Source: an uncultured Lachnospiraceae bacterium
Lineage (GTDB): Bacteria > Bacillota > Clostridia > Lachnospirales > Lachnospiraceae
DNA length: 64,000 bases
Reading direction: 5' to 3'
Assembly: GCA_902765725.1 (NCBI GenBank)
Contig: CACXAT010000010.1
Span: forward strand, 2,542-66,541
The position numbers and the translations under genes were made by a program. Of this stretch, positions 26,165 to 42,025 are shown one piece after another (the first letter of the stretch is position 1; the number at the start of each line of letters is the position of its first letter). The notes under the pieces were generated by a model. It made no database searches. It saw nothing but the letters and a program-made list of their open reading frames with translations, and was not told where the DNA came from.

Positions 26165-26234
26165 GGGACGGAAGGCAACTGGGAGCCGGAAGACGCCCGG
26201 GAGCCGTATAAAACCGAATACTGTGAATGAAGAG

Positions 26235-26290
26235 AGGACAATGATGTCGGCAATGGATCATTTCTAGACGTCATTGTCCTTTTATTTTTC
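26235..26290 (+). promoter_or_regulatory. Leader terminator overlapped by an ANTAR-type hairpin upstream of murT
   Basis: AGGACAATGATGTC (26235-48) pairs with GACGTCATTGTCCT (26267-80), followed by TTTATTTTT. The 5' arm itself folds as GAC-[AATGAT]-GTC. Confidence 0.65.
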
Positions 26291-28554: not shown

Positions 28555-30138
28555 TTACACTCCGCTGTCCCCGTAGTTGGACAGGACTCTGGCGGAGGGA
28601 TCATTTACATCACAGCCTTCCCACTCCCGGTTCGGCATCCAGAAGTCTGCAACCATCTCCGACTGCCCCGGATAGTATTTCTCGAAGATATCGCGGTAGA
28701 GCAGGGATTCTTTCGTGAAGGGCTGCGCGTGGGTATAGCGCGCGCGGCCTTCCTCGAAGGCTTCGTCCGAATACATCGACTCAGCGTAGTCCTGAAGGTC
28801 ATCGCGCAGGGAGTGTCCCACCGCGTCCGAGAAGGCGGCCTTCTCGCGCATCAGGATGCTGAAGGGGATAAGGTCGTCCTTTTCAAATGCGTGGCGCAGC
28901 AGGTATTTTCCGATCCCGTAGGTATTCATCTTCTTTGCAGGATCGATATGCATGACATAGTCCACAAAGTCCAGATCGCCGAAGGGAACTCTCGCCTCAA
29001 GAGAGTGAACAGAGATACTGCGGTCGGCCCTCAGCACATCATACATGTGGATCTCACGGATCCTCTTCTGAGCCTCCTTCTGGAAAGCTTCCGCGTCCGG
29101 GGCAAAATCCGTATATTTATAGCCAAACAGCTCATCCGAGATCTCGCCGGTCAGGATGACGCGAAGGTCTGTGTTCTCGTGGATCCATTTGCAGACCAGA
29201 TACATGCCAATGGAGGCCCGGATCGTGGTAATGTCGTAGGTGCCGAGGGCGTAGATGACCGGCTCCAGCGCATTGATCACATCGTCACGGTTTATGATGA
29301 CCTCATGGTGATTGCTGTGGATATACTCCGCGACCTGCCTTGCGTATTTCAGGTCGATGGCGTCCACATCCATTCCGATGGCAAATGTCTCCAGAGGCCT
29401 GCCTTGCATCTTCGCCGCCGCGCCGCATACCAGGGACGAATCCAGGCCGCCGGACAGCAGGAAGCCGATGGGCGCGTCCGCGTCCAGACGCTTGGCGATG
29501 CCCCGCAGAAGGCGGTCATGGATCTGGCGGGAGATCTCGTCCAGGTCATCCTCCAGATAATACTGCGCCTGTGAAGGATCGTGGTAGCAGATGAACTCCC
29601 CGTCCCTGTAGTAGTGTCCGGGCGGGAATGGGCGTATCTTCCCGCAGACCGGCACCAGCATCTTGGGCTCGGAGGCAAATACGATCGAGCCGTCTTTGTC
29701 ATATCCGTAGTACAGCGGCCGGATCCCGATGGGATCGCGCGCCGCGATAAATGAATCCGCTCCGGCATCGTACAGGACCAGGGCAAACTCCGCGTCCAGA
29801 AGGGAAAACATGCTGCACCCAAGCCGTTCATACAGGGGAAGCAGGATCTCGCAGTCACTGCCGCTCTCAAAGCGGTATCCCAGGGAGATCAGATATTCCT
29901 TCAGAGGGCGGAAACCATACAGCTCTCCGTTGCAGACGCAGGCATTGCCATTTCTGAAGAAAGGCTGCATCCCGGCCTCGGACAGTCCCATGATCGACAG
30001 ACGGCCGAACCCGAGCACGCCGCCCTTCACCCGGGCCGTCCTGGACATATCCGGTCCGCGGGAAGCGGCGATATCCAGAAGCTCCCGGCAGGTGTCCTCT
30101 GAAATCTTACTGCTGCAATACCCCAATACCGTACACAT
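28555..30138 (-). CDS. asnB: Asparagine synthase (glutamine-hydrolysing)
   Basis: N-terminal Cys2, RGPD, NGELY, ARDPIGIRPLY, LLSGGLDSS, TGEISDELFG, EARVPF, REKAAFSD. Confidence 0.93.
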   Translation of the reverse strand: MCTVLGYCSSKISEDTCRELLDIAASRGPDMSRTARVKGGVLGFGRLSIMGLSEAGMQPFFRNGNACVCNGELYGFRPLKEYLISLGYRFESGSDCEILLPLYERLGCSMFSLLDAEFALVLYDAGADSFIAARDPIGIRPLYYGYDKDGSIVFASEPKMLVPVCGKIRPFPPGHYYRDGEFICYHDPSQAQYYLEDDLDEISRQIHDRLLRGIAKRLDADAPIGFLLSGGLDSSLVCGAAAKMQGRPLETFAIGMDVDAIDLKYARQVAEYIHSNHHEVIINRDDVINALEPVIYALGTYDITTIRASIGMYLVCKWIHENTDLRVILTGEISDELFGYKYTDFAPDAEAFQKEAQKRIREIHMYDVLRADRSISVHSLEARVPFGDLDFVDYVMHIDPAKKMNTYGIGKYLLRHAFEKDDLIPFSILMREKAAFSDAVGHSLRDDLQDYAESMYSDEAFEEGRARYTHAQPFTKESLLYRDIFEKYYPGQSEMVADFWMPNREWEGCDVNDPSARVLSNYGDSGV

Positions 30139-30169
30139 AGATATCCCTCCTGTTTCTGTATCCGGATAT

Positions 30170-30213
30170 AAAAAGGGACGCAGACTCCGGCACAGCCGGA
30201 CGCCCTTGTCCCC
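30170..30213 (-). promoter_or_regulatory. asnB leader: ANTAR-type hairpin overlapping an intrinsic terminator
   Basis: Minus strand GGAC-[AAGGGC]-GTCC (plus-strand 30198-30211), then CCGGC-TGT-GCCGG and GCGTCCC-TTTTTAT. Confidence 0.6.
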
Positions 30214-30237
30214 GATCCGCTCATTTATTTACTGAGG

Positions 30238-30267
30238 ATTCTTACACACCGAAAGAATGAAAGTCAA
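30238..30267 (-). promoter_or_regulatory. Putative sigma-A promoter of asnB
   Basis: Minus strand TTGACT, 17-18 bp spacer, TG-TAAGAAT. Confidence 0.45.
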
Positions 30268-30325
30268 CACAGAATGGTTAGTTTCAACATACCCGTTTGG
30301 TATGACAAATCCTGTCCTTCATGTA

Positions 30326-30355
30326 TTAGACGATACTTTTCCGGTATGTTATAAG
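30326..30355 (+). promoter_or_regulatory. Putative sigma-A promoter of glnA
   Basis: TTAGAC, 18 bp spacer, TGn-TATAAG. Confidence 0.5.
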
Positions 30356-30363
30356 GGAGAAAT

Positions 30364-30440
30364 AAAGCAAAGGCGCTTTGAAGGAGCCGCCCCGGGGAAC
30401 ACCCGGGAGACGGTTTCGCTCAGAGGCCTTTTTTGTTTTT
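30364..30440 (+). promoter_or_regulatory. glnA leader: ANTAR-type hairpin overlapping a long intrinsic terminator
   Basis: AAAGC-[AAAGGC]-GCTTT (30364-79). Alternative stem AAAGGC/CTTTGA/GGAGCCG/CCCGGG pairs with CCCGGG/CGGTTTC/TCAGAG/GCCTTT, followed by TTTGTTTTT. Confidence 0.7.
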
Positions 30441-30493
30441 CTGGTCCTGCCGGCCCGGCCGGTCAGGAGGATGCAGCAGAAGGAGGAACTATT

Positions 30494-32602
30494 ATGAAGA
30501 AGGCTACATCGATTCCGGACATGTACGGCAGTCTTGTTTTCAGCGACAGAGTCATGCGGGAGCGTCTGCCCAAGGATATCTATAAGGCAGTTCATAAAAC
30601 GATCCAGAATGGAACACATCTGGAACTGGATGTGGCCAATTCTGTAGCGGCAGTCATGAAAGAGTGGGCGATCGAGAACGGCGCGACTCATTTCACACAC
30701 TGGTTCCAGCCGATGACCGGTCTGACCGCGGAGAAGCATGACAGCTTCATCGCCCCGGAGGGAGACGGCACGATCATCATGGAATTCTCCGGCAGGGAGC
30801 TGGTCAAGGGAGAACCGGACGCCTCCAGCTTTCCCTCCGGCGGCCTGAGAGCCACCTTCGAGGCCAGGGGCTATACCGCGTGGGATCCCTCTTCACCGGC
30901 ATTTATCAAGGATGGCTCCCTGTATATCCCGACCGCGTTCCTGTCCTACGGAGGAGAGGCGCTGGATAAGAAGACCCCGCTCCTTCGTTCCATGGAAGCG
31001 CTGAGCAGACAGGCTGTGAGAGTCCTGCAGCTTCTGGGAGAGAAGGACGTTACCCGGGTGACCACGACCATCGGATCGGAGCAGGAGTATTTCCTGATCG
31101 ACAAGGAGATGTACCTTGCCAGGAAGGACCTGCTGCTGTGCGGAAGGACCCTGCTTGGCGCCCCGGCGCCCAAAGGCCAGGAGATGGAGGATCATTACTT
31201 CGGTGTTCTGAAGCCGAGAGTATCTGAGTTCATGCATGAGCTGGATGAAGAGCTCTGGAAGCTGGGGATCCCGGTCAAGACCAAGCACAATGAGGTCGCC
31301 CCGTCCCAGCACGAGCTGGCACCGGTCTTTGAGACCGCCAATGTCGCGGTCGACCACAACCAGCTGACCATGGAGACCATGAAGAAGGTTGCCGACAGGC
31401 ATGGTTTCGCATGCCTGCTCCACGAGAAGCCCTTCGACGGTGTCAACGGCTCGGGCAAGCACAACAACTGGTCGATCCAGACCAACACGGGAGTCAACCT
31501 CCTGAACCCGGGCAGGCATCCGGGCGAGAACCTGGTCTTCCTGACCTTCCTGGTATCCGTGATCGCGGCAGTTGATAAATATGCAGATCTTCTCAGAGTC
31601 TCCGTCGCGTCTGCCGGCAATGATCACCGTCTGGGCGCAAATGAGGCTCCGCCTGCCATCATTTCCATATTCCTGGGAGATGAGCTCACGGCAGTTCTTG
31701 ATTCCATGGAACACGGCGAGACCTTCGAGAGTGCCGGAAAACAGCAGATGGGAACCGGCGCCCAGGTCCTGCCGCACATCACAAAGGATACGACAGACCG
31801 CAACAGAACCTCGCCCTTCGCATTTACCGGCAACAAGTTTGAGTTCCGCATGCCCGGCTCGGCCCTGTCTGTGGCAAACCCGAACATCGTTCTGAACACG
31901 GCGGTGGCGGACACGCTGTCTGACCTGTACGACGAGCTGGCGCAGATTCCGGAGGAAGAGCGGACGCAGAGACTTCCCGGCCTGCTGCGCAGCCTTCTGA
32001 AGCAGCACAAGAGGGTGCTCTTCAATGGAAACGGCTACACCGACGAGTGGATCGAAGAGGCACACAGAAGAGGACTTGACGATCTGAGAGCGCTTCCGGA
32101 TGCCATGCCCAGATGGATCAGCGACAAGAGCGTCGCTCTGTTCACAAAGCATCAGGTGCTGACGAAGGAAGAACTGTTCTCCCGGTACGAGATGGTCCTT
32201 GAGAATTATTACAAGGCGATCCATATCGAGGCGCTGACGCTGCAGGAGATGGTCCGCAAGGACTTCATCCAGGGCCTGGTCTCCTATACGAAGGACCTGG
32301 CGCAGGAAGCGTCCCTCAAGAGAAGCCTTCTTCCGCAGGCCGCCTGCAGCCTGGAAGAAAAGATCCTTGAAGGTCTGGAGGCAGACGGCGTCCAGATCGC
32401 GCAGGCCCTCGACACCCTGCACACAGACATCCGGACTGCGGAGAAGATTGAAGGTGCGCAGGAGAGCGCGGAGTACTATGAGCGCACCGTCCTGAAGGAT
32501 ATGGAGCAGCTCCGGGCAGCTGTAGACCATGCAGAGGAGCGGATCCCGGACAGCTATCTGCCCTATCCGACCTACAGCAAGATCCTGTTCTCGACGCTGT
32601 AA
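30494..32602 (+). CDS. glnA: Glutamine synthetase type III
   Basis: [73 protein letters not shown]; ATG 30494 follows AGGAGG. Confidence 0.95.
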
Positions 32603-32637
32603 GCAACTGAAAGTACCTGCGATGGCCGTACTTTGAG

Positions 32638-32795
32638 CTGTGAAGGCAATCCTGCACAACCGTAGGAAGCCGACTGCGCTTTGCGAGTTGCCTGCACGTG
32701 CGTGAGCGACCACGTGCCTATAGGAGCGGAAGCACGTGCATATGCAACCGAAGCAAAGCAAAGGCAGGCGACGTGTTTGCAGGATGCCTTCGCAG
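32638..32795. repeat. 158-nt nested imperfect palindrome between glnA and gltB
   Basis: Nested arms CTGTGAAGGC/GCCTTCGCAG, ATCCTGCA/TGCAGGAT, GCTTTGC/GCAAAGC, GTTGC/GCAAC, TGCACGTGC/GCACGTGCA. Confidence 0.75.
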
Positions 32796-32836
32796 TGAGA
32801 AGACGGCCGAAAGACCAGTACAGGACAAGAAAGCTT

Positions 32837-35800
32837 ATGAGAGACTCATATTTTCTGAAAGAACGCGATGCCTGCGGCATCGGCACGGTCGTCAATATCG
32901 ACGGAACAAGAGAGTACGGGGTACTGGATGATGCTCTCCATATCGTGGAGAAGCTGGATCACCGCGCCGGAAAGGACGCTACCGGAAAGGTGGGAGACGG
33001 CGTGGGGATCCTGACCCAGATCCCTCATGGTTTCTTCAAAGCAGCTGCTGCCAGGGAGGAGATCTTCCTGGGGGAAGAGGGCGAATACGGAATCGGTATG
33101 CTGTTTCTTCCCAGAGATACCATGAAGCGCATGTTTGCCATGCGGATGATGGAGGTGATCATCCGCAAAGAGCAGCTGCCCTTCCTCGGATGGAGAAAGG
33201 TGCCGGTGCGCCCGCAGATCCTGGGGGAAAGAGCAGTGGAGTGCATGCCGCCCATCTGGCAGTGCTTCATAGGGAAGCCGGAGCGCATACAGAAGGGCAT
33301 CGACTTTGACCGCCGGCTCTATGTCGTGCGACGCGAATTCGAGCAGAGCTCCGAGGATACCTACATCTGCTCCATGTCTTCGCGCACCATTGTGTACAAG
33401 GGGATGTTCCTTGTACATCAGCTGAGAGAATTCTACTGCGATCTGCGCGATCTGACCTATGAGACTGCGATCGCTATCGTGCATTCCAGGTTCTCGACCA
33501 ACACCACGCCCTCCTGGATGCGGGCCCACCCCTACCGGATGATCGCGCACAACGGAGAGATCAATACGATCCGCGGCAACATGGACCGTATGCTGGCCAG
33601 GGAAGAGACCATGAAGTCCCAGTTCCTCCAGGAGGATCTGGACAAGATCTACCCGGTCATCGCACAGACGGGGTCTGACTCCGCGATGCTGGACAATACT
33701 CTGGAATTCCTCTACATGAACGGGATGGATCTTCCCCTTGCCATGATGGTGGCCATCCCAGAACCCTGGAAGCACAATGACTTCATGTCGAGGCAGAAGA
33801 AGGATTTCTATCATTACTACGCGACCATGATGGAACCCTGGGACGGCCCTGCGGCAGTCATTTTCTCAGACGGCGAGATCCTGGGAGCGACACTGGACCG
33901 CAACGGGCTGCGGCCGTCCCGCTATTATGTGACGGATAACGGCCGGCTGATCCTGGCATCGGAGGTCGGCGTGCTGGATATCGATCCTGCGCATATCAAG
34001 GTGCGCTCGAGGCTGGAGCCGGGCAGGATCCTGCTGGTGGATACGAAGAAGAAGCGGATCATACCCGATGAGGAGTGCAAGGAGATGTATTCCGGAGCCC
34101 ATCCCTACGGAGAGTGGCTGGACCGCTGCCTTCTGCATCTGGCACAGCTGCCGATCCCGAACCGGAAGATCCGCGTCCACAGCCAGGAGATGAGAGACCG
34201 TCTCTACAAGGTATTCGGATATTCCTACGAGGATGTGAAGGAGCAGATCCTTCCGATGGCGGAAAATGGGATCGAGAGTACGGTCTCGATGGGGCATGAC
34301 GCCCCGCTCGCCCTGCTCTCGAAGCATCATCAGCTGCTGTACTGTTATTTCAAGCAGCTGTTCGCCCAGGTGACGAATCCGCCCATCGACTCCCTGCGCG
34401 AGAAGGTTGTCATGGATACCACCGTGTATATCGGGTCGGACGGTGATCTTCTGGAAGAGAAAGCGGACAATTGCAGGGTGCTGGAGATTAACAACCCGAT
34501 CCTGACAGGGGTGGACCTGATCAAGATACGGTCTCTGGACAGGGAGGGCTTCCGCTCGAGAGTCATCTCCCTGCTGTACTACAAGAACACCTCCCTGACC
34601 CATGCCCTGGAGCAGCTCAACATCGCAGTGGACCGGGCGGCGGCTGAGGGATATAACATCCTGATCCTGTCCGACAGAGGCGTCGACGAGAACCATGTCC
34701 CGATCCCGGCTCTGCTCGCGGTCTCGTCTGTGGAGCAGCATCTGGTGATCACAAAGAAGAGGACCGCCGTCTCTCTGATCCTGGAGAGCGGGGAGCCCAG
34801 AGACGTGCACCAGATCGCCTGCCTGATGGGCTTCGGCGCCCGCGCGGTCAATCCGTACCTTGCCCATGAGTGCATCGCGGAGTTGATCGATACGGGGATC
34901 CTGGACAAGGATTATCATACGGCGATCGATGACTACAACAAGGCGCTGCTGTCAGGCGTTGTGAAGATCGCGGCGAAGATGGGAATCTCCACGCTGCAGT
35001 CCTATCAGTCCGCGCGCATCTTTGAGGCAGTCGGTCTTGGCAGCGATGTGATCGACCGCTGCTTTGCCGGCACGGTCAGCAGAGTCGGCGGGATCGGGAT
35101 GAAAGAGATCGGGGAAGATGTGGAGATACGCCATGATCAGGGATTTGATCCCCTTGGCCTTACAGTGGACACAAAGCTGGACTCCATCGGCTTCCATTCG
35201 CTTCGAAGCGGCCCCGACAAAGAGGACCATCTGTACAGTCCCGAGACGATCGTGACCCTGCAGAGGGCGGTGCGGACAGGCGACTATGATCTGTTCAGAC
35301 AGTATACTGCTCTGGTGGATGATGAGGAGCGACCCCACACCCTCAGGTCCCTGCTTCAGATCATCCCGGCAGGTCCGGCGATCCCGCTGGAGGAGACGGA
35401 GAGTGAGGAATCGATCGTAAAACGCTTCCAGACAGGGGCGATGTCCTACGGCTCTCTCTCCGCGGAGGTGCATAAGACGCTGGCCTGCGCCATGAACACC
35501 ATCGGCGGCAAGTCCAATACCGGAGAGGGCGGAGAGGACGAGAAGCGCTTCGGAACCATCTATAACAGTGCCGTAAAACAGGTGGCATCGGGAAGATTCG
35601 GCGTTACCTCCGCTTATCTCAACAGTGCCTCCGAGATCCAGATCAAGATGGCGCAGGGGGCCAAGCCCGGTGAGGGCGGACACCTTCCCGGCAGGAAGGT
35701 CTATCCCTGGGTGGCGGCGACCCGCTATTCCACGCCGGGGGTATCACTGATCTCCCCGCCGCCTCATCATGACATCTACTCGATCGAGGACCTGGCGCAG

Positions 35801-37351
35801 CTGATCTACGATCTCAAGAACGCAAACCGTGATGCCAGGATCAGCGTGAAACTGGTCTCCGAATCGGGAGTCGGCACCATCGCCTCCGGCGTTGCCAAGG
35901 CCGGAGCGCAGGTCATCCTGATCTCAGGCTATGACGGAGGAACCGGCGCGGCGCCCTTCTCGTCGGTGCACCATGCGGGCCTTCCCTGGGAGCTGGGGAT
36001 CACAGAGGCCCATCAGACCCTGATCGAAAATGGGCTCCGGGACCGTGTCGTCCTGGAGACGGACGGAAAGCTGATGAGCGGCCGTGATGTGGCCATCGCT
36101 GCGCTTCTTGGCGCCGAGGAATTCGGTTTTGCGACAGGACCGCTGGTCGCCATGGGCTGTATGATGATGCGCGTGTGCTCGAAGGATACCTGCCCCGCAG
36201 GCATCGCGACCCAGAACGAGTGCCTCAGAGGCCGCTTCCAGGGAAGGCCGGAGCATGTGATCAACTATATGCATTTCATAGCAAGGCAGCTTCGGGAGAT
36301 CATGGCCCGCAGCGGATTCCGGACTGTGGAGGAGATGGTCGGACGCACCGACTGCCTGAAGAGAAAGGATAAACTGCCAGTCAGCCGCAGCACGCTTGCC
36401 GATCTGAACCGGATACTGGACAGGCGCTATGCGCACGTGCAGGGAAGACATTTTGACCCGAAGAAGATCTATGACTTCCATCTGGAACAGACGAAGGATA
36501 TGCAGATCCTTCTGCCGGCTCTGGAGGAAATGAAGCAGAGGAAGCTGCAGAAGATGGTGGTGGAGACAGCGGTCTCCAGCACCGACCGTTCCTTCGGGAC
36601 GATCCTCGGAAGCGAAGTGACCAGAAAGTACGGGAACAGCCTGGCGGAGGATTCATTTACTATAAACTGCACCGGAGGCGGCGGACAGTCCTTCGGAGCG
36701 TTCCTCCCCCACGGTGTGACGCTCCGGCTGAAGGGAGATGCCAATGACGGTTTCGGCAAAGGGCTCTCCGGAGGCAAGCTGATCCTGACACCGCCGGACG
36801 GTGCCGGGTTCAATGCCCATGACAATGTGATCGTCGGCAACGTTGCCCTCTATGGAGCGACCTGCGGCAAGGCGTATATCTGCGGCATCGCGGGGGAGCG
36901 CTTCTGCGTTAGGAACTCAGGCGCCATCGCGGTGGCAGAGGGCTGCGGAGACCACGGCCTGGAGTATATGACCGGCGGAAGGGCCGTGATCCTGGGCATG
37001 ACTGGCAAGAACTTTGTGGCAGGCATGAGCGGCGGCATCGCCTATGTGCTGGACAGAGAGCATACCCTGTACCTGCGCATGAATAAAGAGATGGCCGTGG
37101 CCGAAGAGGTGACCGCGAAGCATGATATCGAGGAGCTTCGGGAGATCCTGAGCGATTATACAGCCGAGACCGGATCCCCCTTCGCGGCAGAGATCCTGGA
37201 GCATTTCGACCGGTACCTTCCGGACTTCAAGAAGATCATCCCGGAGGACTACCGAAGGATGATCCAGACCATCGGAAAGTATGAAGAGCAGGGAAGCAGC
37301 CATGAGAAGGCGGTTCTGGAGGCATTCAGGGAGGTGAGCGAACGTGGGTAA
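32837..37351 (+). CDS. gltB: Glutamate synthase large subunit
   Basis: ERDACGIG N-terminal nucleophile, HSRFSTNT, HNGEINT, IKMAQGAKPGEGG, GC.MMRVC..DTCP.GIATQ, GXGXG domain. Likely start ATG 32837. Confidence 0.96.
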   Translation: MRDSYFLKERDACGIGTVVNIDGTREYGVLDDALHIVEKLDHRAGKDATGKVGDGVGILTQIPHGFFKAAAAREEIFLGEEGEYGIGMLFLPRDTMKRMFAMRMMEVIIRKEQLPFLGWRKVPVRPQILGERAVECMPPIWQCFIGKPERIQKGIDFDRRLYVVRREFEQSSEDTYICSMSSRTIVYKGMFLVHQLREFYCDLRDLTYETAIAIVHSRFSTNTTPSWMRAHPYRMIAHNGEINTIRGNMDRMLAREETMKSQFLQEDLDKIYPVIAQTGSDSAMLDNTLEFLYMNGMDLPLAMMVAIPEPWKHNDFMSRQKKDFYHYYATMMEPWDGPAAVIFSDGEILGATLDRNGLRPSRYYVTDNGRLILASEVGVLDIDPAHIKVRSRLEPGRILLVDTKKKRIIPDEECKEMYSGAHPYGEWLDRCLLHLAQLPIPNRKIRVHSQEMRDRLYKVFGYSYEDVKEQILPMAENGIESTVSMGHDAPLALLSKHHQLLYCYFKQLFAQVTNPPIDSLREKVVMDTTVYIGSDGDLLEEKADNCRVLEINNPILTGVDLIKIRSLDREGFRSRVISLLYYKNTSLTHALEQLNIAVDRAAAEGYNILILSDRGVDENHVPIPALLAVSSVEQHLVITKKRTAVSLILESGEPRDVHQIACLMGFGARAVNPYLAHECIAELIDTGILDKDYHTAIDDYNKALLSGVVKIAAKMGISTLQSYQSARIFEAVGLGSDVIDRCFAGTVSRVGGIGMKEIGEDVEIRHDQGFDPLGLTVDTKLDSIGFHSLRSGPDKEDHLYSPETIVTLQRAVRTGDYDLFRQYTALVDDEERPHTLRSLLQIIPAGPAIPLEETESEESIVKRFQTGAMSYGSLSAEVHKTLACAMNTIGGKSNTGEGGEDEKRFGTIYNSAVKQVASGRFGVTSAYLNSASEIQIKMAQGAKPGEGGHLPGRKVYPWVAATRYSTPGVSLISPPPHHDIYSIEDLAQLIYDLKNANRDARISVKLVSESGVGTIASGVAKAGAQVILISGYDGGTGAAPFSSVHHAGLPWELGITEAHQTLIENGLRDRVVLETDGKLMSGRDVAIAALLGAEEFGFATGPLVAMGCMMMRVCSKDTCPAGIATQNECLRGRFQGRPEHVINYMHFIARQLREIMARSGFRTVEEMVGRTDCLKRKDKLPVSRSTLADLNRILDRRYAHVQGRHFDPKKIYDFHLEQTKDMQILLPALEEMKQRKLQKMVVETAVSSTDRSFGTILGSEVTRKYGNSLAEDSFTINCTGGGGQSFGAFLPHGVTLRLKGDANDGFGKGLSGGKLILTPPDGAGFNAHDNVIVGNVALYGATCGKAYICGIAGERFCVRNSGAIAVAEGCGDHGLEYMTGGRAVILGMTGKNFVAGMSGGIAYVLDREHTLYLRMNKEMAVAEEVTAKHDIEELREILSDYTAETGSPFAAEILEHFDRYLPDFKKIIPEDYRRMIQTIGKYEEQGSSHEKAVLEAFREVSERG

Positions 37352-38831
37352 AGCGACCGGTTTTCTGGAGTACGCAAGACAGGACGATCGGATCGTGCCT
37401 GTCAGCGAGAGGATCCTTACCTTTGACGAATTTCATACACCGCTGGATGAAAAGGCACGTACCGAGCAGGCCGGACGCTGCATGAACTGCGGGGTTCCCT
37501 TCTGTCAGTCCGCCATGAAGCTGAATGGCATGGTGACCGGCTGCCCGCTGCACAATCTGATCCCGGAGTGGAACGATCAGATCTGGCAGGGACACCTCGG
37601 ACATGCCTACGCAAGGCTCAGCAAGACCAGCAATTTCCCGGAGTTTACCGGCAGGGTCTGCCCGGCGCTGTGCGAGAAGGCCTGCATCTGCGGGGATCAC
37701 TCGGACCCGGTCAGCGTCCATGACAATGAGAGGTTCCTGATCGAAGAAGCCTTTGCCCGGGGCTTTGTACAGCCCATGATCCCGAAGGTGCGAAGCGGCA
37801 TGAAGATCGCAGTGGTCGGCAGCGGTCCCTCCGGACTTGCAGCTGCCGATATGCTGAACCACAGGGGGCATACGGTCCACGTATACGAGCGTGAAGACAG
37901 GATCGGCGGCCTGCTGATGTACGGGATTCCCAACATGAAGCTGGACAAGTCCGTCATCGCCCGCCGTCAGAAGCTGATGGAGGCGGAGGGCGTCGTCTTT
38001 TGCACCGGCTGTAATATCGATGAAAATGAATCTGACAGGCTGAAGGCAGAGTATGACGCGGTCGTGCTGTGCTGCGGCGCGAAGCAGGCAAGGAAGCTGA
38101 AGGGTGCGGATCCGGAGAAGATCAAAGGCATCTATTATGCAGTGGACTACCTTACCTCTGTGACCAGGAGCCTGATGAAGGCGGAGGACCATAAAGCCTC
38201 GAGCCTGCTGGCAAGGAAAGACTTTGTGAGCGCGGCGAAGAAGCACGTGGTAGTGGTCGGCGGCGGAGACACCGGCAATGACTGCATCGGTACGGTGATC
38301 CGGCAGGGCTGCAGGAGCGTAACGGCCCTTGAGATGATGCCAAAGCCCCCTGTCATCAGGGCAGAGGACAATCCCTGGCCCCAGTGGCCGAAGGTCCTGA
38401 AGACCGACTACGGCCATGAAGAAGCCATCGCCCTGTGGGGACAGGATCCCAGAGTCTATGAGACAACCGTGAAGGAATATATTACGGGGAGCAATGGCAG
38501 GCTGAAGCAGATCATGACAGTCAGAGTCTGCTTTGAGGACGGCAAGCTGAAGGAAGTCCCGGGATCCGAGAAGACCCTTCGCTGCGATCTTCTGCTGATC
38601 GCGGCAGGCTTCACCGGCTGCGAGGCCTACACACCCCAGGCCTTTGGCGTGGAGCAGACCTCCAGGGGCTGTGTGCGGACCCTGTCCGGAAGCTATCAGA
38701 CCAGCGTTCCGGGGATCTTTACAGCAGGAGATATGCACCGGGGACAGTCCCTCGTGGTGTGGGCGATCGCGGAAGGGCGGGAGGCCGCGCGGGAGGTGGA
38801 CCGGTACCTGATGGGATACGAGAGGCAGTAA
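37344..38831 (+). CDS. gltD: Glutamate synthase small subunit
   Basis: [49 protein letters not shown]; overlaps the gltB stop. Confidence 0.96.
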
Positions 38832-40068: not shown

Positions 40069-40106
40069 AGAGAAAGACCGTCTGTCAGAAGCAGTCACAA
40101 TAACAG

Positions 40107-40186: not shown

Positions 40187-41788
40187 TCAGACCTTCCGGC
40201 AGTGGAGCGCGGCCTCGATCAGACCCGCAAAGAGCGGATGGGCATGATTGGGCCTGGAGCGAAACTCCGGATGGGCCTGCGTTCCGATGAAGAAGGGATG
40301 ATCCTTCAGCTCGATCATTTCCACGATCCTGTTATCCGGAGAGGTTCCGGCGATGATCAGGCCGGCCTCCTCCAGAGCGGCCCGGTAGTCATTGTTCACC
40401 TCAAAGCGGTGGCGGTGCCGCTCCGATATGACAGCCCTCCCGTACAGATGATAAGAGCGGGTGCCGCTCTTCAGGGCACATGGATAGGCGCCAAGGCGCA
40501 TGGTGCCGCCAAGATTTGTCACATCCTTCTGCTCCGGCATCAGGTCGATGACCGGATGCTTCGTGTCAGGATCAAACTCTGTGCTGTCGGCATCTTTCAT
40601 GCCCAGGACATCTCTGGCGAAATCCGCGATGGCCATCTGCATGCCCAGGCAGATCCCGAGGAAGGGGATCTTATGGTGCCTTGCATAGCGCGCCGCATAG
40701 CGGATCCCGTCCATGCCGCGGCTGCCGAAGCCGCCGGGAACGATGATGGCATCAGCCTGCCCCAGAAGGTCCCGGGCAGTCGCCTCTGACAGGTCCTCCG
40801 ACTCGATCCAGAGGATCTCCACATTGCAGTGATTGGCGATGCCGCCGTGCTTCAGGGCTTCCGCCACAGACAGGTAAGCGTCATGCAGTTCGGTATATTT
40901 TCCCACAAGGGCGACGCGGACAGTCTTCTTCGCGCAGCGCAGCGTCTTAACAACCTGCTCCCACTGTGACAGATCCGGCGAGGGAGAGGGGAGCTGCAGG
41001 CATTCCAGCACACTCTGGGCCAGCCGCTCCTTCTCCATGATCAGCGGAATCTCGTAGAGATATTCCGCGTCCTGATTCTCCAGCACATGCTCGACCGGGA
41101 CATTGCAGAACAGGGCGATCTTTTGCCGGATCGCATCCGAGAGCGGATACTCCGTGCGGCAGACCAGAATATCCGGCTGGATACCGGTCTCCTGGAGCCG
41201 TTTTACACTCATCTGGGTCGGCTTGGTCTTCAGCTCTCCGGAGACCTTCAGGTAAGGGACGAGGGTGACATGGATCATGATCGCGTTCTGGCGCCCGACC
41301 TCCCACTGGAACTGACGGATCGCTTCCAGGAAGGGCTGACTCTCGATATCGCCGACCGTGCCTCCGACCTCGATGATGGCGATCCGGTCACAGTCCGGAT
41401 CCTGCGCACCGTAAAAACGGGACTTGATCTCATTGGTGATATGGGGAATGACCTGCACCGTGCCTCCGCCATAGTCCCCGTGACGCTCCCGTGCGAGGAC
41501 CGATTCATAAACCTTGCCGGAAGTGACATTGGCATGGCAGTCCAGGTTCTCGTCAATGAACCGCTCATAGTGTCCCAGGTCCAGATCCGTCTCCGTCCCG
41601 TCGTCGGTGACAAAGACCTCGCCGTGCTGGATCGGATTCATGGTACCCGGATCGATGTTGAGATAGGGATCGAACTTCTGCATGGTGACCTGATATCCTC
41701 TTGCCTTGAGGAGCCTGCCCAGGGAAGCGGCAGTGATGCCCTTCCCGAGTCCGGATACGACACCTCCGGTCACAAATACATATTTCAT
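40187..41788 (-). CDS. pyrG: CTP synthase
   Basis: [57 protein letters not shown]; start follows AGGAGG. Confidence 0.97.
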
Positions 41789-42025
41789 ACAGTCCCTCCT
41801 TTTTACCAGTCTGCAGCAATCCCTTTCACTATAAGAGAGATCCGCCAAAGAATAAAATATCAGGATTATCCGCTTTTCATACCTAAGGAGTATGGCGGGG
41901 CAGGAAACATTTTCTGAAAAATAATGTTGAGCTAATGTTCAAGTCACAATTCCGACTTAATGCTCCTGTACCTTGATTACAACATCAAAACAGATCTGAT
42001 TCTCAGAGATAAAAGGAGATACAGT

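Follow-up and report, generated by a model that had tools for sequence, protein, structure and literature searches.

Antitermination by ANTAR-domain proteins is taught as needing two hairpins in the leader RNA and a dimer of the regulator that is activated by a signal. The features by which target leaders are recognized, namely the A1/G4 rule for the hexaloop, the eut 13-mer AGCAANGRRGCUY and the requirement for two hairpins (P1 and P2), were set out by Ramesh 2012 (PMC3369931), in which ANTAR leaders were also predicted, in Desulfotomaculum and other Firmicutes, ahead of the genes for PII, Amt and glutamate and glutamine synthase. A 2025 review lists every characterised ANTAR target as "dual hairpins" (PMC12591593). 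For EutV, a longer linker between P1 and P2 abolished activity (PMC8934654), and in the crystal structure the dimer contacts a single hexaloop, which was called the minimal binding motif (Walshe 2022, PMC8934654). Here, we describe two divergent leaders in the spacer between asnB and glnA in 64,000 nucleotides (nt) of DNA from an uncultured Lachnospiraceae bacterium (GenBank assembly GCA_902765725.1, contig CACXAT010000010.1, positions 2,542 to 66,541 of the forward strand; this whole stretch is referred to as the window). Each leader is likely, with a probability that we put at about 0.7 on the basis of sequence comparison, to be an ANTAR-type, protein-dependent transcription attenuator with a single 5'-terminal hairpin.

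The window belongs to a rumen genome of 2.5 Mb that is 94.7% complete (G000), the two closest genomes being G064, which is 100% complete, and G073. The spacer between asnB and glnA is 355 nt long and both divergent leaders lie inside it. The presence of a hexaloop hairpin/terminator module in both leaders is confirmed. The hairpins have 4-6 base pairs and are closed by C-G, and the two modules are made up as follows.

30326-30355, plus strand: glnA promoter-like site, TTAGAC (30326-30331), an 18-nt spacer and TGtTATAAG (-10 at 30350-30355); read from the sequence and identical in G064 and G073.
30363-30380, plus strand: glnA antiterminator hairpin UAAAGC-AAAGGC-GCUUUG, loop at 30369-30374; sequence reading, folding and covariation.
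30370-30440, plus strand: intrinsic terminator of the glnA leader, stem at ~30370-30428 and U6-G-U5 at 30429-30440; folding.
30494-32602, plus strand: glnA, type III glutamine synthetase (GS); Pfam GSIII_N, Gln-synt_C and Gln-synt_C-ter.
30267 to 30238, minus strand: asnB promoter-like site, TTGACT-18-AAGAAT with TG; promoter scan, conserved in G064 and G073.
30211 to 30198, minus strand: asnB antiterminator hairpin GGAC-AAGGGC-GUCC, loop at 30207 to 30202; sequence reading and folding.
30213 to 30170, minus strand: intrinsic terminator of the asnB leader, GGGGAC...GUCCCU (30213 to 30175) and U5 at 30174 to 30170; folding.
28555-30138, minus strand: asnB, glutamine-hydrolysing asparagine synthetase; Pfam Asn_synthase and GATase_7.

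An earlier note on this DNA, made from the sequence alone, had described back-to-back promoters leading into the hairpins GGAC-AAGGGC-GTCC (minus strand) and AAAGC-AAAGGC-GCTTT (plus strand), each lying within the 5' arm of a U-tailed terminator and forming a switch with it. Sequence and folds agree with this description, both promoter-like sites are conserved in the two closest genomes, and the proposed switch is supported by mutually exclusive folds and by covariation in both helices. Orthologous glnA leaders have TTGACA-16/18-TATAAT-like sites at the same place; from such conserved promoters, transcription of glnA and asnB would start a few bases upstream of the hairpins. Seven bases separate the end of the glnA -10 from the start of its hairpin, and the 5' arm of the glnA terminator starts within the hairpin loop, while the entire asnB mini-hairpin is contained in the 5' arm of its terminator.

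The 156-nt stretch containing the glnA leader (30345-30500) folds at -65.7 kcal/mol, with a z-score of -3.8 versus shuffled sequences. The glnA hairpin alone contributes -3.9 kcal/mol versus -42.9 for the terminator fold including its A/U extension, and the asnB hairpin alone -4.0 kcal/mol versus -27.3 for the terminator fold. When the mini-hairpin is forced to form, the terminator stem adjacent to the U-tract is lost in both leaders. With weak hairpins (~-4 kcal/mol) set against strong terminators (-27 to -43 kcal/mol), termination should be the default outcome and read-through should need something that stabilizes the small hairpin.

The apex of the glnA terminator carries a GC-rich insertion of ~22 nt (30386-30407) that is specific to G000; the terminator is compact in G064 and G073, which differ from G000 in the apex by this 22-nt indel. 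A hairpin within this apex was considered as a second hairpin and rejected, because its loop is a pentaloop, GAACA, and neither G064 nor G073 has it. Compared with these two genomes, the glnA leader of G000 also has an extra GC-rich hairpin, GGUCCUGCCGGCC...GGCCGGUCAGGA, at 30441-30470 between the terminator and the ribosome-binding site. Conversely, the asnB leaders of G064 (C27) and G073 (C335) contain an insertion of ~60 nt between promoter and hairpin, a tandem duplication of AAACUCCAUCAGGAGUCAAUAAAAGG (two copies), that is absent in G000. Immediately upstream of the asnB -35, a block CA[C/G]AGAATGGTTAGTTT (plus strand, 30268-30285) is kept in all three genomes and could be an UP element or an operator. 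A palindrome between the promoters, CATACC-N5-GGTATG, was set aside because it is not conserved in G064 or G073.

The core of the module is strongly constrained. In glnA, the block from the -35 through the hairpin is 100% identical in G064 and G073 save for loop position 3 (A or G), and the asnB hairpin of these genomes differs only at loop position 6 (C to U, giving AAGGGU). Comparison with leaders from related genomes, which the earlier note had suggested as a check, shows the module to be conserved with both helices covarying: the same hairpin and terminator recur in front of glnA orthologues from about 20 genera. When 30 copies are aligned without gaps, no variation is seen in the closing C-G, in loop A2 or in loop G4 (30/30), and A1 (27 copies, with G in the other three) and G5 are each present in at least 90%, giving a family loop consensus of (A/G)-A-N-G-G-(C/U). 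The four inner hairpin pairs show G-C/A-U/C-G/U-A exchanges among the copies, with a covariation score of 0.597 versus a shuffled mean of 0.294 (none of 500 shuffles reaches 0.597) and 0.10-0.22 for slid-partner controls. The terminator helix has a covariation score of 0.653 versus 0.326 when shuffled and is 94% paired; copies were chosen partly for having the stem, which inflates the percentage paired and counts against leaning on it, but leaves the compensatory exchanges unaffected. A covariance model (CM R1) built without the glnA copy of G000 recovers that copy at 25.8 bits. In the same genome it does not recover the asnB and murT copies, because there the hairpin lies wholly inside the terminator arm, and its other matches (C47, C28, C29, C4 and C21) were rejected as plain terminators or intragenic, as was a C2 match inside rnfC.

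The glnA hairpin fits the eut 13-mer at every position but one, position 9, where it has C instead of R, and the A-G-C/G-C-U closing pairs are among the 12 that agree; the close fit proposed in the earlier note thus stands. Both leaders have a short stem capped by a hexaloop with A1 and G4 (AAAGGC in glnA, AAGGGC in asnB) that overlaps the 5' arm of an intrinsic terminator with mutually exclusive folds, and an ANTAR-domain protein is encoded in the genome. The short stem, the hexaloop with its essential G4 and the terminator overlap are shared with the leaders controlled by EutV/EutW in Enterococcus faecalis, and the local protein shares with EutV the ANTAR residues that hold G4. The eut leaders, however, have P1 and P2 separated by 5-12 nt, whereas here one hairpin lies at the 5' end; eut loop positions 5-6 are R-R, compared with G-(C/U) here; the eut regulon serves ethanolamine use, compared with nitrogen assimilation here; and the G000 regulator is without the receiver domain, coiled coil and kinase of the EutV/EutW system. 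The NasR/nasF leader of Klebsiella oxytoca is a further relative, in which a nitrogen-assimilation operon is controlled by ANTAR antitermination and A1 and G4 of the hexaloop are essential (PMC3369931), but NasR carries a NIT nitrate sensor and two hairpins are reported for its leader (PMC12591593), whereas no NIT domain and only one hairpin are present here. The nitrogen leaders of Firmicutes in Ramesh 2012 were found with a dual-hairpin covariance model, whereas the Lachnospiraceae leaders are mostly single hairpins. Judged by its sequence, the module resembles ANTAR targets in its loop rules, its overlap with the terminator, the theme of its regulon and the family of its putative protein partner, and differs from them in hairpin number.

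An ANTAR match is present in 54 of 60 genomes of the family, one in each except G053, which has a second, sub-threshold match, and the gene is often 2-20 kb from glnA. CM matches occur in 45 of the 54 ANTAR-positive genomes versus one of the six ANTAR-negative genomes, two of which are only 67% complete (Fisher p=0.0019, with kinship ignored). The distance from the motif to the ANTAR gene downstream of it is ~1.8-2 kb in G003, G014, G041 and G051, an arrangement that suggests an autoregulated sensor-regulator operon. Loop rules, co-occurrence with ANTAR genes and synteny thus all agree with the ANTAR-type reading that the earlier note had put forward. In G006 (L064 3362-5294) the ANTAR gene follows a gene for a 404-residue type-I-like GS, which is divergent from type III glnA. 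Clostridium saccharobutylicum reportedly has a glnA-nitR-gltAB cluster, in which a GS gene stands beside a small ANTAR regulator, NitR, and nitrogen control by antitermination has been proposed. The G006 pair resembles this layout; in G000, by contrast, the GSI-like gene and full-length ANTAR regulator of such a cluster were not found. No paper on ANTAR in Lachnospiraceae or on NitR was found in the open-access literature.

The earlier note had suspected a single-hairpin variant, as only one clear hairpin was visible in each leader, and the comparison supports this. In 17 of 21 glnA leaders, a promoter matching TTGACA-16/18-TATAAT at 10-12 of 12 positions ends 7-15 nt before the hairpin, and no second hexaloop hairpin was found within 90 nt upstream in any of the 21. 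The asnB, amt, glmS, carA and guaA leaders of the genus likewise showed no second upstream hexaloop hairpin, and no P1 was found in the glnA, asnB or glmS leaders; a 5-base-pair hairpin with a 7-nt AAUAACC loop in the glmS leader was rejected as P1 because it has no G4 and lies at a distance of 14 nt. With conserved promoters directly next to the hairpin and no second hexaloop upstream, the glnA and asnB leaders appear to be true one-hairpin leaders; if the promoters are real, then the hairpin would be the first structure in the transcript, with no room for P1. Leaders with two hexaloop hairpins do occur in the genus, before gltB (L092, L093, L099, L103 and L104). In one example, a P1 of CGAUAUC-AAAGGC-GAUAUCG follows directly after the promoter and a P2 of GAAGC-AAUGGC-GCUUC sits on the terminator. 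The gltB hairpins are 44-53 nt apart from loop to loop, with linkers of ~30 nt, well beyond the 5-12 nt that EutV tolerates. Two hairpins may also be present at the asnB-glnA junctions of two genomes. One- and two-hairpin leaders thus coexist in the genus, presumably under one regulator.

Four intergenic sites in G000 match a loose descriptor (a stem, a C-[A/G]ANGG[C/U]-G loop and a nearby terminator), and each falls within the leader of a glutamine or nitrogen gene, namely glnA, asnB, glmS (C17) or amt (C23), which form the predicted regulon in this genome. Across the genus the regulon includes asnB, gltB, glnA, amt, glmS, carA, guaA and the gene for an amino-acid ABC transporter ATPase, the last three of which are preceded by the module in sister species, and all of these genes make or use glutamine or ammonium. 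In asnB leaders of several species of the genus the loop is GAAGGC, with G rather than A at position 1. A third, weaker copy in the window lies before murT-gatD:

26232-26289, plus strand: murT-gatD leader, hairpin GAC-AAUGAU-GUC (26237-26248) in the 5' arm of a terminator with its U-tract at 26280-26289; folding and orthologue comparison.

The orthologous hairpin is UGAC-AAUGAU-GUCA in G064 and UGAC-AAGGGU-GUCA in G073, with a compensating 3' arm of the terminator, so the murT copy is probably a true, divergent member of the module. Of the three copies with a common loop consensus AAnGRn that had been proposed for the window, the murT copy is thus upheld as homologous by the canonical AAGGGU of G073, but the consensus itself is tighter than proposed, (A/G)ANGG(C/U).

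The only candidate regulator in G000 is the product of a single open reading frame matching PF03861 (53.6 bits against a cutoff of 27.3; Pfam E=9e-15):

L001 1483-1665 (G000:C15), minus strand: 60-residue ANTAR-only gene; Pfam PF03861.

This mini-ANTAR frame starts ~20 nt after a gene for a LysR-type regulator, behind a ribosome-binding site of its own (AAAGGAGG), and a YgiQ-type radical-SAM gene comes next. The order LysR-miniANTAR-YgiQ and the protein (60-66 residues) are conserved in G000, G064 and G073 (L001, L075 and L083) despite many synonymous differences, which argues that mini-ANTAR is a real gene. Its homologues form a small family of ~60-residue ANTAR-only proteins; in the protein itself the N-terminal 12 residues are polar and ANTAR is the sole Pfam domain. 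Alignment to EutV (6wsh) places E29 at Glu160, H33 at Tyr164 (H or F in relatives), M41 at Met172 and K18 at Lys149, the positions that hold the flipped G4 and plug the loop in EutV (Walshe 2022, PMC8934654), whereas Arg168, Arg175 and Arg177 are not conserved and several backbone-contacting arginines are lost. A possible analogy for a sensor-less ANTAR protein is the AmiR/AmiC system of Pseudomonas aeruginosa, in which an ANTAR protein is controlled by a partner rather than by phosphorylation; AmiR, however, has a pseudo-receiver and a coiled coil and acts on dual hairpins (PMC12591593), whereas the local ANTAR protein has no known partner. No attenuator motif was found upstream of the LysR-miniANTAR operon, and autoregulation by attenuation was accordingly rejected for this operon. 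A palindrome that resembles a LysR box, TATAGTTTTATACTATA, does occur there.

In most members of the family, the ANTAR protein has ~182 residues, with an N-terminal domain without a Pfam match, a basic linker and the ANTAR domain; other members have a form of ~195 residues, of which the G006 member gives a weak receiver-domain match. Most members of the genus have the ~195-residue protein, G073 has both short and long forms, and G064 has the mini form only. In G026 (C13; L062 3625-5373, minus strand) and G027 (C19), CTP synthase ends in a C-terminal ANTAR domain (582 residues in all), and this PyrG-ANTAR gene is divergent from a type III glnA whose leader carries the hairpin/terminator module. 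Such fusions occur in 28 protein clusters that draw on many assemblies, with CTP synthase as their sole annotation. The pyrG gene of G000 (40187-41848, minus strand) is in the same gene block as glnA and ends without an ANTAR tail. The identity of the regulator and the sensing of nitrogen are the weakest link of the explanation.

From the observed structure, conservation, covariation, regulon coherence, and ANTAR co-occurrence and synteny, we infer the start, default termination, binding protein and signal in the following scheme. RNA polymerase would start a few bases upstream of the hairpin, and the unassisted nascent RNA would fold into the strong intrinsic terminator, stopping transcription before asnB or before glnA-gltBD. 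Under nitrogen or glutamine limitation, a signal suggested by the content of the regulon, an ANTAR-domain protein would grip the C-G-closed (A/G)ANGGY hexaloop hairpin, probably flipping out G4 as EutV does, and the hairpin so held would withhold the 5' arm of the terminator and let the polymerase read through. In G000, glmS and amt would be under the same switch, and probably murT-gatD too. The sole candidate for the binding protein is the 60-residue ANTAR-only protein, whose gene would be co-transcribed with that of the LysR-type regulator.

Several observations weigh against this scheme. The glnA and asnB leaders lack the dual-hairpin arrangement that defines ANTAR-target RNA, and antitermination by EutV requires both hairpins and the dimer (PMC3369931, PMC8934654). 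The sensor or receiver domain and coiled coil of ANTAR regulators are absent from mini-ANTAR, which resembles an inactive EutV truncation: the EutV monomer without the coiled coil binds weakly and does not antiterminate (PMC8934654). Loop position 1 is G in some copies, nine of the 54 ANTAR-positive genomes have no CM match and one ANTAR-negative genome has one, and the loose descriptor is not enriched over a reversed-genome control. At 94.7% completeness, moreover, G000 could be missing a full-length regulator, which opens a first alternative, that the attenuators are ANTAR-type but are served by a full-length sensor-ANTAR protein encoded in the unassembled ~5%, mini-ANTAR being a remnant or an accessory. 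The failure of the EutV truncation, the ~195-residue protein of most genus members and the two forms in G073 speak for such a regulator. Yet the complete genome G064, with the mini form only, keeps the glmS (CM match), glnA, asnB and murT modules; tblastn found no receiver-ANTAR or GSI-like gene in G000; and the mini gene is under purifying selection, with its own ribosome-binding site and conserved synteny with the LysR-type and YgiQ genes, so that we regard this alternative as unlikely.

Somewhat less likely again is that the hairpin is read by some other kind of RNA-binding protein, or that a protein of nitrogen status such as GS or PII acts on the RNA, with a convergent likeness to ANTAR targets. 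The 12 of 13 eut positions including the closing pairs, the invariant G4, the phyletic association with its repeated synteny, the motif upstream of ANTAR-containing operons and the canonical paired hexaloops in some gltB leaders all argue for ANTAR, against which must be set that this link is correlational only and has the discordant genomes given above, that the one-hairpin layout recalls single-hairpin systems such as RAT/LicT and that mini-ANTAR has no dimerization element. A riboswitch for glutamine or another metabolite, or a trans-acting RNA that base-pairs with the loop, would suit the glutamine-centred regulon and the single-stranded state of the loop GGC and the 3' arm in one conformer, but is very improbable: only ~16-20 nt are conserved, the terminator apex is free in length and sequence, the element is too small for a ligand pocket, and no Rfam family matches. 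The window gave no Rfam match at the gathering threshold, and a scan of 29900-30700 at E<=10 gave nothing relevant, glutamine riboswitches included, its sole match being an irrelevant one of 12 bits inside asnB. Ordinary constitutive terminators or attenuators with a chance hexaloop would explain why the loose descriptor finds seven matches in the genome and five in the reversed genome, even though it had been tightened after an earlier, generic descriptor scan of the genome proved too noisy. With such counts motif counting alone proves nothing, and significance rests on the other evidence, namely conservation in over 20 genera, compensatory exchanges in both of the competing helices, a constant location just behind the promoters and a coherent nitrogen regulon; these comparative data contradict chance, which we hold to be the most improbable of the explanations.

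GlnR/TnrA-type control was also sought at this locus. The box TGTNAN7TNACA has no match in 30139-30493 even with one mismatch and is not enriched across the window; one perfect match at 40083-40099, between the aminotransferase gene and the end of pyrG, is probably due to chance because such matches are not enriched. Pfam analysis of the genes of the window confirms the identities of AsnB, type III GS, GltB, GltD, MurT and GatD; murT-gatD sit just past asnB, and glnA heads a unit glnA-gltB-gltD-aminotransferase with the following downstream members:

32838-38831, plus strand: gltB and gltD of the glnA unit; Pfam.

The true start of gltB is probably the ATG at 32838 and not the TTG at 32681 of the longest open reading frame. 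The glnA-gltB spacer (32603-32837, ~235 nt), as read from its sequence, shows no U-tailed terminator, no hexaloop hairpin and no separate attenuator; palindromes nested in one another and three copies of CACGTG do occur in it. Elsewhere in G000 (C4:38512-39111) there is a second type III GS paralogue, which is 66% identical over the first 200 residues; many members of the family have two type III GS copies.

The most far-reaching interpretation, which we offer tentatively and consider more doubtful than probable, is that a single 5'-terminal hexaloop is enough for natural ANTAR antitermination and that its driver is a free-standing 60-residue ANTAR domain without sensor or coiled coil, which would obtain dimerization and the nitrogen signal from a partner in trans, the ANTAR domain being a portable RNA clamp that has been joined time and again to different glutamine sensors. 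The partner could be the co-transcribed LysR-type protein. It may also be the glutamine-binding CTP synthase from the same glutamine gene block, a candidate by Rosetta-stone logic because PyrG-ANTAR fusions are encoded beside glnA in sister genera. One-hairpin leaders fit the structural finding that the EutV dimer grips one hexaloop (PMC8934654) and offer a minimal natural system for asking what the second hairpin does. For annotation, such one-hairpin sites are missed by dual-hairpin models and by Rfam. The sensor-less 60-residue ANTAR protein is particular to the genome of the window, and the plasticity of the regulators, from a form with a receiver-like N-terminus through a CTP-synthase fusion to a bare 60-residue domain, gives a handle on nitrogen sensing in Clostridia without GlnR/TnrA-type control. 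In a large family of gut and rumen bacteria, the entire glutamine economy appears to depend on ANTAR control in a one-hairpin form at the start of the transcript, covering GS, GOGAT, AsnB, GlmS, Amt and probably cell-wall amidation, together with CarA and GuaA in relatives.

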